DNA of 10,828 nt from Candidatus Heimdallarchaeota archaeon (GCA_016840095.1 JAEOSZ010000044.1:1-10828), one strand, 5' to 3'; counted from the stretch's first letter, positions 1,018 through 4,471 are shown. The notes: generated from the letters alone by a model not told the origin. Numbers and translations: made by a program.

Positions 1018-1323
1018 TTAGGTACAACAAAAAATACTCTCAATTATCACATCTATGAGAACCTCAATAAAGCATAATCCAGCTCTAGTTTCTCTTTTTT
1101 CATTGTCTTTTTCTTGAGTTGATTCTCTTCTAATTTCACCTTTATCTTGAATTTCATCATTTTTTTCTTTTGGAGGAGATAGAATTGTTTTTTCAAACTT
1201 GATAGGAAGATGTTTTTCCTTATACTCTAGAATGGCATCTTCTAAATCCTCTCCACAGAAATAACAGAATTTTGCTTCAGATTCATGTGGTTTTCTACAT
1301 CTAGTACATTTGAAACCTTCCAT
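1018..1323 (-). CDS. Zinc-ribbon 'header' family protein with C-terminal hydrophobic Cys-ending tail
   Basis: Start moved to the ATG at 1323 (MEGFKCTRC...), which aligns with the paralog starts and removes the overlap with the upstream gene. Charged linker, then GLCFIEVLIDVIIESIFCCT*. Confidence 0.8.
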   Translation of the reverse strand: MEGFKCTRCRKPHESEAKFCYFCGEDLEDAILEYKEKHLPIKFEKTILSPPKEKNDEIQDKGEIRRESTQEKDNEKRETRAGLCFIEVLIDVIIESIFCCT

Positions 1324-1331
1324 ATTAGAAA

Positions 1332-1733
1332 TCACCACCAAAAAATATCCAATACCCAAAGAAGTATAGTTATTGCAGTTAGTATAACCAAAACTATAAT
1401 TAAAATCACAAATCTAGTATTAAATGATTTACCTGCTGTTTCAGAATTTATAGATGTAGCCATGTCTAAGCTTTTAAGACGACGACTAGCTGATGTATCA
1501 GAAAATTTTGATCTTATGTTATATTTACCAAAATCCTCACCACAATTTGAGCATATAATCTCTTCTTTTGGATTTTCTTTCATACATTTTGGACAGAAAA
1601 ATGTACTTTGTTCAAATTCGTTAATTGGAACGTCTTGTTTAGGTTCACTTTTTAGATTGCTACCACAAAAAATACAATGTTTATACTCAGAATTGGATGT
1701 ATTACCACAGTTTGAACATATTATAATTTCCAT
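1332..1733 (-). CDS. Double zinc-ribbon protein with C-terminal TM helix (tail-anchored topology)
   Basis: Four CxxC pairs (CSNC, CIFC, CPKC, CSNC); no signal peptide; ends RFVILIIVLVILTAITILLWVLDIFWW*. Its ATG directly abuts the TAG of the upstream gene. Confidence 0.85.
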   Translation of the reverse strand: MEIIICSNCGNTSNSEYKHCIFCGSNLKSEPKQDVPINEFEQSTFFCPKCMKENPKEEIICSNCGEDFGKYNIRSKFSDTSASRRLKSLDMATSINSETAGKSFNTRFVILIIVLVILTAITILLWVLDIFWW

Positions 1734-2030
1734 CTAAATACACCATTTAAAAATAAATTCACAAATATTAGCTTCTTCTCCATCTTCAAAAAGAGAATGT
1801 TCTTTCCTAGAAACTCGACCAGGTGGAGGTAATGGGCTACCAGTAGGATACTTTTTCTCCTTAACTTCCACATCTTCTTTAAGTTTAGGTTCGTTATATT
1901 CTAATTTAACCGGAAGTTTTTTGTTTTTGTATTGTATAATAACATCCGATAAATCTTCACCACAAAATTCACAAAATCTTTCCTTTGACTCATGTTGTTT
2001 TCCACAGTTTGGACAGAATACTCCAGACAT
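1734..2030 (-). CDS. Zinc-ribbon 'header' family small protein
   Basis: MSGVFCPNCGKQHESKERFCEFCGEDLSDVIIQYKNKKLPV header, Pro-rich YPTGSPLPPPG, ends ICEFIFKWCI*. Confidence 0.85.
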   Translation of the reverse strand: MSGVFCPNCGKQHESKERFCEFCGEDLSDVIIQYKNKKLPVKLEYNEPKLKEDVEVKEKKYPTGSPLPPPGRVSRKEHSLFEDGEEANICEFIFKWCI

Positions 2031-2056
2031 ATCAAATATTACTTACTACTATGTAG

Positions 2057-2073
2057 ATATAAGGATTCTTCAC
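2057..2073 (-). promoter_or_regulatory. Putative BRE-TATA promoter with GTGA extension
   Basis: Minus strand GTGAAGAATCCTTATAT; TATA-like element 27-32 nt upstream of the ATG at 2030; same motif and spacing upstream of two paralogs. Confidence 0.55.
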
Positions 2074-2116
2074 TTATTGTCTTTAATATAGTCTTGAAAC
2101 TTTATTTCTTTGAATA

Positions 2117-2797
2117 TTAAATTACTGTGAAGAATAACACAATTACAACTATAGCTATAAGTATAAACATTGCAGAAAGCAATTTATCAATACCTGGCAT
2201 GTTTCCCCACAAATCGCGTCTATATTGTCTGTCAGCTGCTGTATCAAAGTCACACATCTGAGAACAGAAACGCAAAGCTGCAGATTCTCTTCTCCTTTCT
2301 GCGTACCTTTGAAGAACCGGTCTACCTGCATATCTAACTATTCTCTTAACATGTATCATGAAGTTAAATGAGATTCCTGCAAGTAACAACAGAATTAGAA
2401 ACAGAATTATATTTACAGCTTGACTCAAACGATAAACAAAATACTCATTGTAAAGTAATACTCCACTAAGACCTGCCAAAAACAAGAAACCAAAAATCAA
2501 CTTTGTATTTACATTTGAAATTAGTATTACTTCAGTTTCTTCCTCTTTAGGTTTTTGAAGACTTTCAATCCTTTCTCTTTCTCTTTCTTGTTCTTTTATT
2601 TTCAAAACAGTTTCTCTTCGTTCTGCCCAAGCATCGATTGGTTTAACTTCTTTAGGTTTATCATTCTTAATTGAAATTGGGAGTTGTTTGTCTTTATATT
2701 CAATTATGATATCTTCTAAATCTTCGTTACAGTAGGAGCAATAACGTTCATTTCCTATATGTTCTTTTCCACAACTAGGACAAAATAATTCTGACAT
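2117..2797 (-). CDS. Zinc-ribbon 'header' family membrane protein (charged coiled-coil-like linker, about 3 TM segments)
   Basis: Header MSELFCPSC...YCSYCNEDLEDIIIEYKDKQLPI; E/R/K-rich helix; hydrophobic segments LIFGFLFLAGLSGVLLY, IILFLILLLLAGISFNFMI and C-terminal LLSAMFILIAIVVIVLFFTVI. Confidence 0.85.
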   Translation of the reverse strand: MSELFCPSCGKEHIGNERYCSYCNEDLEDIIIEYKDKQLPISIKNDKPKEVKPIDAWAERRETVLKIKEQERERERIESLQKPKEEETEVILISNVNTKLIFGFLFLAGLSGVLLYNEYFVYRLSQAVNIILFLILLLLAGISFNFMIHVKRIVRYAGRPVLQRYAERRRESAALRFCSQMCDFDTAADRQYRRDLWGNMPGIDKLLSAMFILIAIVVIVLFFTVI

Positions 2798-2824
2798 ATC
2801 AACTAGAATATTCTCTTACCAAAT

Positions 2825-2840
2825 CTTAAATTTTTCTCAC
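2825..2840 (-). promoter_or_regulatory. Putative BRE-TATA promoter with GTGA extension
   Basis: Minus strand GTGAGAAAAATTTAAG, starting 43 nt upstream of the ATG at 2797. Confidence 0.55.
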
Positions 2841-2893
2841 TCCAATACTAATCTTTTTATTTTTTCTAAAGCGATGGTATTTTGTGAATAAAA

Positions 2894-3922
2894 ATGAAAA
2901 TAGGTCTTCTTACTGGTGGAGGTGACTGTCCAGGTCTAAATGCTGTTATTAGAGCAATAGGCAGAAAGGGGATGGATCATTACAGTGATGAATTCATCGG
3001 TTTAAAAAATGGTTGGGCTGGACTTATGTTTCTAGATTACTTTGATATGGAAAGAAAAAATTTCTCTGGAATCTTACATCTTGGAGGTACTATTCTTGGT
3101 TCATCTCGAACCAATCCCGAGAAAGAGGAGGGAGGATATGATTTAGCAATTAGAAACTACAAAGAGCTTGGATTAGATGCACTGATTGCAATTGGAGGAA
3201 ATGATACTCTAAGTGTAGCTCAGAAATTATATGAGAAAAACATACCAATAGTAGGAGTACCAAAAACTATTGATAATGATATTTGTGCAACAGATATGAC
3301 TTTTGGTTTTGATACAGCAGTTGCTATTGCTACAGAAGCTATAGATAGACTACATACTACAGCTGAATCACATCATAGATGTATTGTAGTTGAGGTAATG
3401 GGAAGACATGCTGGATGGATCGCTACTTATGCTGGAATAGCTGGTGGGGCTGACATAGTTCTTATTCCAGAGGAAGCATTTGATATTAATGATGTCACTG
3501 ATAAGATTCAAAAAAGAATGAATAGAGGAAAATTCTTCTCTATTGTAGTAGTTGCTGAAGGTTTTCAACTTAAAGAAGAGGGATGGAATCTACAAACACA
3601 AGAAACAGATGATTTTGGCAATATTCGTCTAGGTGGTATTGGTGATCTTGTAGCAAGGGAAATTGAAAGGAGAATGGGAATTGAATCAAGAGCTGTTGTA
3701 CTTGGTCATGTACAAAGAGGGGGTACTCCCACGGCTTATGATAGAGTGTTGGGGACCAAATTTGGAATTGCAGCTATTGACTTGGTTCATGAGGGTAAAT
3801 TTGGAATGATGACAGCGTTACAAGGAACCAAAATTAGACCAGTTCCAATATTAGATGGTGTTAAAGAATCAAAAACTGTTGACAAAGAGACTTATGAGAT
3901 TGCCAAAGTTTTCTTTGGTTAG
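2894..3922 (+). CDS. pfkA: 6-phosphofructokinase, PfkA superfamily (group III/mixed-substrate-like), probably PPi-dependent
   Basis: Family motifs TGGGDCPGLNA, GGTILGSSR, GGNDT, PKTIDND, TFGFDTA, EVMGRHAGWIA, LGHVQRGG; 342 aa. Confidence 0.95.
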   Translation: MKIGLLTGGGDCPGLNAVIRAIGRKGMDHYSDEFIGLKNGWAGLMFLDYFDMERKNFSGILHLGGTILGSSRTNPEKEEGGYDLAIRNYKELGLDALIAIGGNDTLSVAQKLYEKNIPIVGVPKTIDNDICATDMTFGFDTAVAIATEAIDRLHTTAESHHRCIVVEVMGRHAGWIATYAGIAGGADIVLIPEEAFDINDVTDKIQKRMNRGKFFSIVVVAEGFQLKEEGWNLQTQETDDFGNIRLGGIGDLVAREIERRMGIESRAVVLGHVQRGGTPTAYDRVLGTKFGIAAIDLVHEGKFGMMTALQGTKIRPVPILDGVKESKTVDKETYEIAKVFFG

Positions 3923-3930
3923 TTGAGATA

Positions 3931-3970
3931 GAAAAATAGAAAAAGAAAAAAAGAAGAATGGATATTCTTC
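3931..3970 (-). terminator. Short hairpin plus oligo-T tract terminating the 3974..4471 gene
   Basis: GAAGAAT-GGAT-ATTCTTC inverted repeat (3953-3970), followed on the minus strand by TTTTTTTCTTTTTCTATTTTTC; lies between convergent genes. Confidence 0.55.
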
Positions 3971-3973
3971 AGT

Positions 3974-4471
3974 TTAACACGATATATCGCAGCCACTGCA
4001 ATCGCAACCACTTGCACAATCAGCACAATCACAGCCACCACAATCTCCACAACCTGAACAATCAGAACCTCCACAACCAGTAGATCTCCTTCCAGTTCTT
4101 TTTCCAGATAATGATGCTGTAGTTACTATAGAAATAAGAAAAACAAGACCGATAAGAATTGTTAGACTGATGAAGATCTGATTAGCCCAATTTGCGAAAA
4201 TTATAACCAACAAAAGACTAATACCAGTACATAAAGTAAGTATAGCAAAAACTAATTGAGTTTTTTCTCTTCTTTCAGCTTTTGCTTTCTGTTTTCTGTA
4301 AGTTTCCTCATCCATATTTGGAGGTATTTTTGAAGCATTTTCATAGTTGATTGGGAGATGTTTTTGTTTGTAACGCAGAATAGCTCCTTCTAAATCTTCT
4401 CCACAATTTTTACAAAATTTACCCTCTGTTTCATGTAAATTTCCACACTTAGAACAGAAAATCTTTACCAT
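3974..4471 (-). CDS. Zinc-ribbon 'header' family protein with 2 TM helices and a Cys/Gly/Asp-rich C-terminal tail
   Basis: Header MVKIFCSKC...FCKNCGEDLEGAILRYKQKHLPI; two hydrophobic helices; tail GCGGSDCSGCGDCGGCDCADCASGCDCSGCDISC*. Confidence 0.85.
   Translation of the reverse strand: MVKIFCSKCGNLHETEGKFCKNCGEDLEGAILRYKQKHLPINYENASKIPPNMDEETYRKQKAKAERREKTQLVFAILTLCTGISLLLVIIFANWANQIFISLTILIGLVFLISIVTTASLSGKRTGRRSTGCGGSDCSGCGDCGGCDCADCASGCDCSGCDISC

Follow-up and report, generated by a model that had tools for sequence, protein, structure and literature searches.

Small membrane proteins headed by an N-terminal zinc ribbon are among the commonest uncharacterised protein designs of prokaryotes, and eukaryotes possess small proteins with Cys-rich tails. 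In the eukaryotic CYSTM module, a C-terminal helix carries five to six cysteines, three to four of them consecutive, followed by an acidic residue (PMC2804304), and yeast CYSTM/CYSPD members are held at the membrane by palmitoylation, an S-acylation performed by DHHC enzymes (PMC10840359). Here we consider a stretch of 10,828 nucleotides from Candidatus Heimdallarchaeota archaeon (GCA_016840095.1 JAEOSZ010000044.1:1-10828; hereafter the window), in which four genes encode proteins that share a near-invariant N-terminal domain of about 43 residues, the header, and differ in nearly everything that follows. The window comprises an entire 10.8-kb contig (C18) of a genome of 3.44 Mb that is 89% complete and about 32% GC, and the source is, as its sequence identifies it, a Heimdallarchaeon (Asgard); the orthologous contig of the same genus is MEHH01000099.1 from Candidatus Heimdallarchaeota archaeon AB_125, and all named relatives are metagenome-assembled genomes of Heimdallarchaeota/Promethearchaeati. 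In the header, a very common N-terminal module has been elaborated in a lineage-specific way and sharply conserved. On balance, we favour the reading that its bearers form an old, locally duplicated and lineage-specific family, conserved at both ends and prone to insertion and deletion in the middle, in which a cytoplasmic ribbon would be held at the membrane and modules would not have been shuffled.

The four open reading frames (ORFs) on which the first-pass annotation rested are real, as ORF listing and translation agree, and all lie on the minus strand; hydropathy likewise agrees with the transmembrane (TM) segments that it had assigned to the four C-termini, namely a single hydrophobic tail in P0001, a short tail in P0002, three TM segments in P0003, and two plus a Cys-rich tail in P0004.

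1018..1323, minus strand: P0001, 101 aa; header at nt 1195-1323, then a linker of acidic and basic residues; the hydrophobic/acidic tail (21 aa, nt 1021-1083) ends in CCT
1734..2030, minus strand: P0002, 98 aa; header at nt 1902-2030, then a linker rich in Pro; the amphipathic Cys tail measures 12 aa (nt 1737-1772)
2117..2797, minus strand: P0003, 226 aa; header at nt 2669-2797, a K/E-rich linker, and three predicted TM segments (nt 2474-2530, 2345-2443 and 2120-2200)
3974..4471, minus strand: P0004, 165 aa; header at nt 4343-4471, a TM hairpin spanning residues 70-124 (about nt 4100-4264), then a tail rich in Cys, Gly and Asp (nt 3977-4078)

Over residues 1-48 the four headers align without gaps, and their 15 invariant columns (M1, C6, C9, H13, C20, C23, E25, D26, L27, I31, Y34, K35, K37, L39 and P40) reproduce the consensus first proposed. 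A hidden Markov model (HMM) built from these headers and run over every six-frame ORF in the genome retrieves the four themselves at E values of 1e-28 to 1e-30 and a fifth full-length copy on contig C120 (E 3e-22), a protein whose C-terminus reads ...ILFFWMCCGPDCD; all other matches in the genome are generic ribbons, the best at 1e-10 to 1e-6, that cover only profile positions 1-28. Between the window paralogues, codon identity within the header is 0.44-0.56 at third positions versus 0.65-0.76 at positions 1 and 2, so that the similarity reflects old paralogues under selection at the protein level and not a recent duplication of DNA. Family-wide, conservation extends to about residue 43: among 107 headers, C6, C9, C20 and C23 are conserved in 99-100%, I31 in 99%, L27 and K35 in 98%, H13 and P40 in 97%, G24 in 92% and L39 in 91%, and [IV]41 and [YFL]43 are conserved as well.

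A C4 zinc ribbon makes up the first part of the header; behind it come a conserved helix (residues 28-38) and an L-P-[IV] motif. AlphaFold2 models place two ribbon hairpins, with strands around both knuckles, ahead of the helix at 28-38, with a predicted local distance difference test score (pLDDT) of 73-89; the mean is 69.5 when the header is modelled alone and 80-89 within the full-length model of P0002. Pfam assigns residues 5-27 only, to Zn_Ribbon_1, DZR or Zn_ribbon_3. Against the 25-bit gathering cut-off of Zn_Ribbon_1 (PF13240), P0002 scores above it (28.8) and P0001 (22.9) and P0003 (20.9) below, and P0004 has no match at E ≤ 1 to it or to any other Pfam ribbon; across the 95 members on which Pfam matching was run, 74 match PF13240 at E ≤ 0.05. 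The helix and L-P-[IV] extension is covered by none of the Pfam, NCBIfam and PDB entries searched, which bears out the first-pass view that the header beyond its generic ribbon is unnamed, and that no characterised family spans it whole. PADLOC and NCBIfam searches gave no meaningful match, so these are neither a known defence component nor a named family.

Structural comparison leads to the same generic neighbourhood. The 107-header profile finds only ribbon knuckles among PDB sequences (bL32, E 0.0016), Foldseek of the header against the PDB returns nothing at E ≤ 0.001 and best matches near E 1, and a wide VIA-align structure search peaks at Z 2.5 (range 2.0-2.5) with generic zinc fingers throughout. 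In the ESM Atlas, the ribbon-plus-helix shape is common to bacterial and archaeal membrane proteins headed by Zn_Ribbon_1, with 43-58 residues aligned, and a feature search with the C120-type protein reaches a best score of 0.82 against generic Zn_Ribbon_1 clusters. Co-folding of the header as a homodimer scored 0.00, a value that, with controls not run and the partner fold uncertain, is evidence neither way. A reading of the header helix as an ESCRT-like MIM/MIT element was set aside, its i, i+4, i+7 hydrophobic pattern being generic.

The reach of the family is equally well delimited. The header search that the first-pass annotation had proposed yielded, after removal of duplicates, 108 distinct members from a single Heimdallarchaeia family. 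Full headers occur in 62 ORFs from 21 of the 25 genomes of the genus (the AB_125 lineage), at one to six copies per genome and often clustered, and the four genomes of the genus that lack them include one that is 91% complete; outside the genus, among the 83 genomes of the class searched, one further genome, from a sister genus, carries a full header, and the rest hold only proteins made of a generic ribbon, a linker and TM segments, without the Y-K-x-K-x-L-P part. An exhaustive HMM search of 1.84 billion representative proteins returned 51 clusters with the complete header. The family is confined to one family of Heimdallarchaeia and almost wholly to one genus, the AB_125 lineage. A spurious-ORF reading was rejected, given bodies conserved within orthogroups and genes present across 21 genomes. 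The genome also encodes dozens of generic proteins composed of an N-terminal zinc ribbon, a Q/P-rich linker and TM segments (for example at G000 contigs C62:1432-1851, C45:79941-80477 and C115:3244-4404), some of which end in WWWW and not in Cys.

Beyond the header, the proteins part company at the level of pairwise alignment. The bodies of the four window proteins have no mutual BLAST match at E ≤ 0.05, and no pair exceeds 50% probability when their orthogroup profiles are compared with hhalign; body identity is 38-80% within orthogroups and 7-31% between paralogues. What recurs is the end of the protein, typically a short hydrophobic helix with an acidic residue and with cysteines after it or mixed into it. 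With a Cys tail defined as at least two Cys among the last 15 residues, 64% of the 108 members possess one, versus 3% of a background of 3151 genome ORFs of at least 100 aa, in which the overall Cys frequency is 0.9%. When the bodies were clustered with strict BLAST into 39 unlinked clusters, 23 of these had such an end; relative to the background of 3%, this gives a binomial P of about 2e-25, for clusters that are not fully independent. The plausible cases of such an end in the source genome are the header proteins, and the remaining ORFs that have one look spurious. In the window, a Cys-bearing hydrophobic end is common to three of the four proteins, the exception being that encoded at 2117-2797. 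The subgroups with a TM hairpin and a Cys tail are mutually homologous (hhalign 90-99.9%), and no body or tail was found without a header. The first-pass statements that similarity ends after LP[IV] and that the C-termini are unrelated therefore survive in part: the window remainders are indeed unalignable by BLAST and hhalign, but conservation across the family continues to about residue 43, most members share the Cys-rich hydrophobic tail, and the hairpin subgroups are related to one another.

We envisage each protein as beginning with a cytoplasmic domain of about 43 residues, in which the second knuckle of the C4 ribbon would run into an amphipathic helix and then into L-P-[IV]-x-[YF], and most members as closing with a short helix that is hydrophobic, contains an acidic residue and bears a Cys cluster. 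Between these ends would lie a fast-evolving spacer, which may consist of at least one TM hairpin, of a second ribbon, or of a linker that is charged or rich in Gln or Pro. The family may have grown by local duplication within a syntenic region, followed by drift and by insertions and deletions in the middle, in which TM hairpins and second ribbons were gained and lost. A cytoplasmic location of the header is suggested by a zinc ribbon that comes without a signal peptide, and the Cys tail of P0004 is likely cytoplasmic because a basic patch follows its second TM segment; in the hairpin forms, both protein ends would thus be cytoplasmic. The TM hairpins, the Cys-rich hydrophobic tail, or both could keep the protein on the membrane's cytoplasmic side, and TM-less members would attach solely via their hydrophobic, Cys- and Trp-rich end of 12-20 residues. 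The positions H13, K35, K37 and L39-P40 lie outside the zinc knuckles and are probably exposed; given how strongly they are conserved, we infer a specific binding surface on the header, one that the members may have in common for engaging a partner, while their different spacers would set distance, copy or membrane context.

The chief rival to this account takes the header as a portable docking module that was recombined onto unrelated membrane cargoes, yielding an interchangeable set of adaptors or receptors that compete for one partner. The mutual dissimilarity of the four window bodies is what such a history would leave behind, as is a header to which an additional generic ribbon is at times joined in front, or a second ribbon behind; the P0003-type linker is joined to different anchors, and generic Zn_Ribbon_1 heads sit on many unrelated prokaryotic membrane proteins. 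Yet bodies and tails were not found apart from the header, the Cys-rich tail recurs on bodies that are otherwise unalignable, the hairpin subgroups intergrade in profile comparison, and the copies all lie in one syntenic neighbourhood, as tandem duplication predicts. We therefore judge recombined cargo to be unlikely, and a family conserved at both ends with an indel-prone middle fits better because no body or tail is seen alone; the P0003-type linker, found with 0, 2 or 3 TM segments, supports this latter reading too. The first-pass notion of a constant module with variable cargo is accordingly upheld for the module, which is constant and selectively maintained ahead of unalignable bodies, and not supported for the cargo, which appears not to be independent and interchangeable, the Cys tail being restricted in this genome to header proteins. 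Likewise, homology among the C-termini is not detected in the window four but is evident among the hairpin subgroups, and duplication with drift is the better fit. Several observations nevertheless weigh against the favoured family history. The window bodies fail to pair in hhalign; an HMM of the group-A tail, searched against the genome and the family, retrieved group A only; and the Cys tail, whose homology across subgroups is not proven, is shared in composition and position and could be convergent composition. The tail is moreover missing from P0003 and about 28% of members, some of them truncated at contig ends, and hydropathy finds no TM segment in 58 of the 108, so that their putative membrane association is deduced solely from the hydrophobic end of 12-20 residues.

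Other accounts assign the weight to the tail or deny the header a partner. The proteins might be membrane-tethered thiol or metal binders, in which tails and CC ends act as chelators of soft metals or as buffers against redox stress at the membrane and the ribbon head oligomerises or senses metal. The Cys density of many tails is extreme in comparison with the genome as a whole (11 Cys in the 34 residues of the P0004 tail), and eukaryotic CYSTM proteins with Cys-rich tails are tied to metal and stress tolerance (PMC2804304, PMC10840359). However, most small members hold two or three tail cysteines inside a hydrophobic helix, which makes a poor chelating site, Pfam and NCBIfam searches gave no metallothionein or metal-transport match, and no conserved metal-related genes lie nearby; a metallothionein-like composition (about 30% Cys in CxC/CxxC arrays) is reached by P0004-type tails only, and metal binding there is a composition-based suggestion. 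This makes a metal-binding role quite improbable in our estimation. Less credible again is an archaeal analogue of CYSTM/CYSPD, in which a lipid-modified (S-acylation-like) C-terminal Cys cluster attaches the TM-less members. The smallness of the proteins, the linkers of the C120-type group that are rich in Gln and Pro, a hydrophobic C-terminal helix that contains an acidic residue and has cysteines adjacent, a Heimdallarchaeal host, and the palmitoylation-dependent membrane binding of the yeast proteins (PMC10840359) all suit it. They are offset by the lack of a Pfam CYSTM match at E ≤ 10, by fewer cysteines and no run of three or four in the window proteins, by an N-terminus that is a folded zinc ribbon and not disordered, and, weakly, by the failure to detect DHHC (PF01529) or prenyltransferase-beta proteins in the 89%-complete genome, a search to which control genomes were silent too. 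A bolder version, in which the Cys cluster is a thiol-dependent (lipid or metal) anchor, a functional counterpart and possibly a forerunner of CYSTM/CYSPD that is coupled to a header recruiting one cytoplasmic partner in common and operates without a recognisable DHHC enzyme, strikes us as a longer shot still. We give least credence to a header with no specific partner that serves as a fast-folding N-terminal cap, fixing an N-in topology or stabilising very small membrane proteins: the same ribbon-plus-helix shape is carried by many unrelated bacterial and archaeal membrane proteins and generic versions abound in this class, but over half of the members are TM-less, and the near-invariance of the non-structural residues H13, K35 and P40 across old paralogues points to a specific interaction.

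Individual genes add detail to the family that we favour as an old, locally duplicated one. P0001 ends ...IIESIFCCT, and its start at ATG 1323 is favoured over TTG 1359 because of the header alignment. P0002, which belongs to an orthogroup of six members, ends ...CEFIFKWCI; its AlphaFold2 model contains helices at 28-38 and 87-97, the latter corresponding to the hydrophobic end of the protein, with a disordered linker between them. P0003 has a CxxxC in the basic loop just ahead of its last TM segment and ends in that third segment without a Cys tail; its body is present only in P0003 itself, one relative at 88% and the header-bearing P0050, and relatives with the same type of K/E-rich linker carry either no or two TM segments plus a Cys tail. 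P0004 ends ...CDCSGCDISC, has an orthologue in Heimdallarchaeota AB_125 that is 82% identical, and possesses a body homologous to those of other groups with a hairpin and Cys tail (hhalign 99.7%). CCC runs are present in the tails of some relatives, and the C120-type group has a Q/P-rich linker. In five relatives (P0008, P0014, P0040, P0066 and P0041), a further generic zinc ribbon and a linker of 40-70 residues stand ahead of the header, which is therefore not invariably N-terminal. Two further ORFs of the window, both absent from the earlier count of four genes, and the intergenic regions upstream of three header genes are as follows.

1332..1733, minus strand: P0005, 133 aa; no header; two generic zinc ribbons (DZR 6.4e-8) and, at the C-terminus, a single TM segment that ends in WW
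2..130, minus strand: N-terminal part of a truncated zinc-ribbon ORF, cut by the contig end; generic ribbon matching profile positions 1-30 only
2031..2116, minus strand: intergenic region upstream of P0002; GTGA-N7-TTATAT (resembling a B recognition element and TATA box, BRE/TATA) about 43 nt ahead of the ATG
2798..2893, minus strand: intergenic region upstream of P0003, divergent from the phosphofructokinase gene; the same GTGA-N7-TTATAT element at -43
4472..4561, minus strand: intergenic region upstream of P0004; the same GTGA-N7-TTATAT element at -42

P0005 is packed between two header genes, its start abutting the stop of P0002 and its stop lying 8 nt ahead of the start of P0001. Its second ribbon, F-F-C-P-x-C ... 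C-x2-C-x-E-D-F-[GS]-K-Y-N-I, which follows a generic first ribbon, recurs after a full header at L038:6300-6659 and L075:579-938, in relatives built as header, second ribbon and Cys tail, and we link P0005 to the family because this conserved ribbon stands behind full headers there. The contig end cuts the ORF at 2..130 upstream of where the helix and LP motif would come. Scans for bacterial promoters and terminators are inapplicable to an archaeal host. Only P0002, P0003 and P0004, together with close orthologues of these, share the GTGA-N7-TTA element at -42/-43; of 59 upstream regions across the family, 12 contain a match at any distance and 7 at -42/-43. An individual TATA-like box, 30-38 nt ahead of the ATG, precedes most header genes. 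P0001 is probably co-transcribed, as it has no promoter-like box of its own and P0002, P0005 and P0001 are tightly packed, and the likely transcription units are P0004, P0003 and P0002-P0005-P0001.

Header genes are clustered in syntenic regions of about 10 kb, where they are interspersed with housekeeping genes. A phosphofructokinase gene (PF00365, 2.3e-109) at 2894-3922 on the plus strand is flanked by two header genes, P0003 on its divergent side and P0004 on its convergent side, and has the same placement in 11 genomes of the genus. At 205-786 (plus strand) lies a gene for a 193-aa protein with an N-terminal signal-like segment, a C-terminal TM segment with a basic end, and no Pfam match, conserved near header genes in eight genomes; at 6308-6919 (plus strand), a two-TM protein has a C-terminal RING-like finger (zf-RING_2 E 1.2e-4, below cut-off) and is kept beside header genes in five. 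The window also encodes three right-handed beta-helix/NosD-like proteins, at 4562-6160 (minus), 8667-10304 (plus) and 10366-10827 (minus), the two full-length ones matching PF13229 at 7e-33 and 3e-20 and the middle one containing TSP3-type acidic repeats as well. Each ends in a hydrophobic stretch and RRR, in one case after a P-E-F motif, an end that looks like an archaeosortase-type (PEF-CTERM-like) sorting signal. Elsewhere, at L023:1715-2512, a membrane protein resembling steroid-5-alpha-reductases and polyprenol reductases (PF02544, 2.6e-49), with a weak match to the phospholipid methyltransferase family PEMT, is encoded close to a C120-type header gene, and in 12 genomes a PF02544 gene is found near such a gene, perhaps through synteny alone. 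The phosphofructokinase, aldo/keto reductase, GNAT, M28 peptidase and steroid-5-alpha-reductase-like neighbours were considered as functional partners and rejected, since their presence reflects synteny at the level of the genus.

Considering how widespread ribbon-headed designs are, the header family offers an unusually clean case, with about 100 natural variants in which a near-invariant head of 43 residues is followed by bodies that range from TM-less to multi-TM, and in which H13, K35, K37 and L39-P40 are candidate surface positions. That hydrophobic tails rich in Cys occur in an archaeon closely related to eukaryotes further raises the question of thiol-based membrane attachment outside eukaryotes. 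Should neither idea be true, there would still be a well-delimited new protein family for Pfam or catalogues of the asCOG type.

How, then, does the family compare with described systems? CYSTM/CYSPD proteins (PF12734) are likewise small, with multiple paralogues and a variable, often Q/P-rich middle (PMC2804304), and share with it a C-terminal hydrophobic helix with clustered Cys and an acidic residue. In contrast to them, P0001 and P0002 have two or three Cys, at most two of them adjacent, and an acidic residue inside or before the helix, their N-terminus is a folded ribbon, and a Q/P-rich linker is restricted to the C120-type group. PF12734 has no match in 10 representative members at E ≤ 10, a search in which HMMER filters may hide very weak ones, and is not among the 25 commonest of the 90 matched families listed for the 95 members. 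ICMT-like matches in the genome were discounted as a sign of eukaryote-type lipidation, for they are unspecific and occur in bacteria too.

RanBP2-type/NZF fingers have the same C-x2-C-x10-C-x2-C spacing and superpose on the header with a root-mean-square deviation of 1.2-1.6 Å over 24-26 residues, but the Foldseek E of about 1 and Z of 2.0-2.5 are poor, and no Pfam zf-RanBP match is listed. The PF00641 signature is W-x-C-x2-C-x3-N-x6-C-x2-C, and ubiquitin binding by NZF fingers involves a T-F dipeptide after the second Cys. In the header, the aromatic residue is F/Y and stands at -1, the signature Trp is not kept, the Asn position is His in 97%, and the dipeptide positions are G (80%) and K (58%). 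Proteins of the DUF2207_C and, presumably, TIGR04222 type resemble the hairpin members in having a TM hairpin and then a Gly/Cys-rich low-complexity tail; DUF2207_C matches P0004 weakly (E 0.0018, 18.4 bits versus a cut-off of 33), and also seven family members, but these matches are below threshold and the header family has no DUF2207 N-terminal domain.

Most similar of all is the generic membrane protein headed by Zn_Ribbon_1 (PF13240) or DZR (PF12773), as in the TcaA-type architecture, which shares the N-terminal CxxC-x10-CxxC ribbon, the helix, the low-complexity linker and one or more TM segments. The header differs from it by a His where the usual Asn follows the first knuckle and by a 16-residue extension, D-L-E-x2-I-L-x-Y-K-x-K-x-L-P-[IV], that generic members lack, and the family differs by its many TM-less members and by a Cys-rich tail of its own. 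The hope of an undescribed kind of system, voiced in the first-pass annotation, gives way here, since N-terminal Zn_Ribbon_1 domains are widespread on diverse membrane proteins of bacteria and archaea and this ribbon-headed membrane architecture is already known; what is new is a lineage-restricted subfamily with the helix and LP extension and the Cys-rich tail. The present family is a new and well-delimited subfamily of a common, uncharacterised prokaryotic design.

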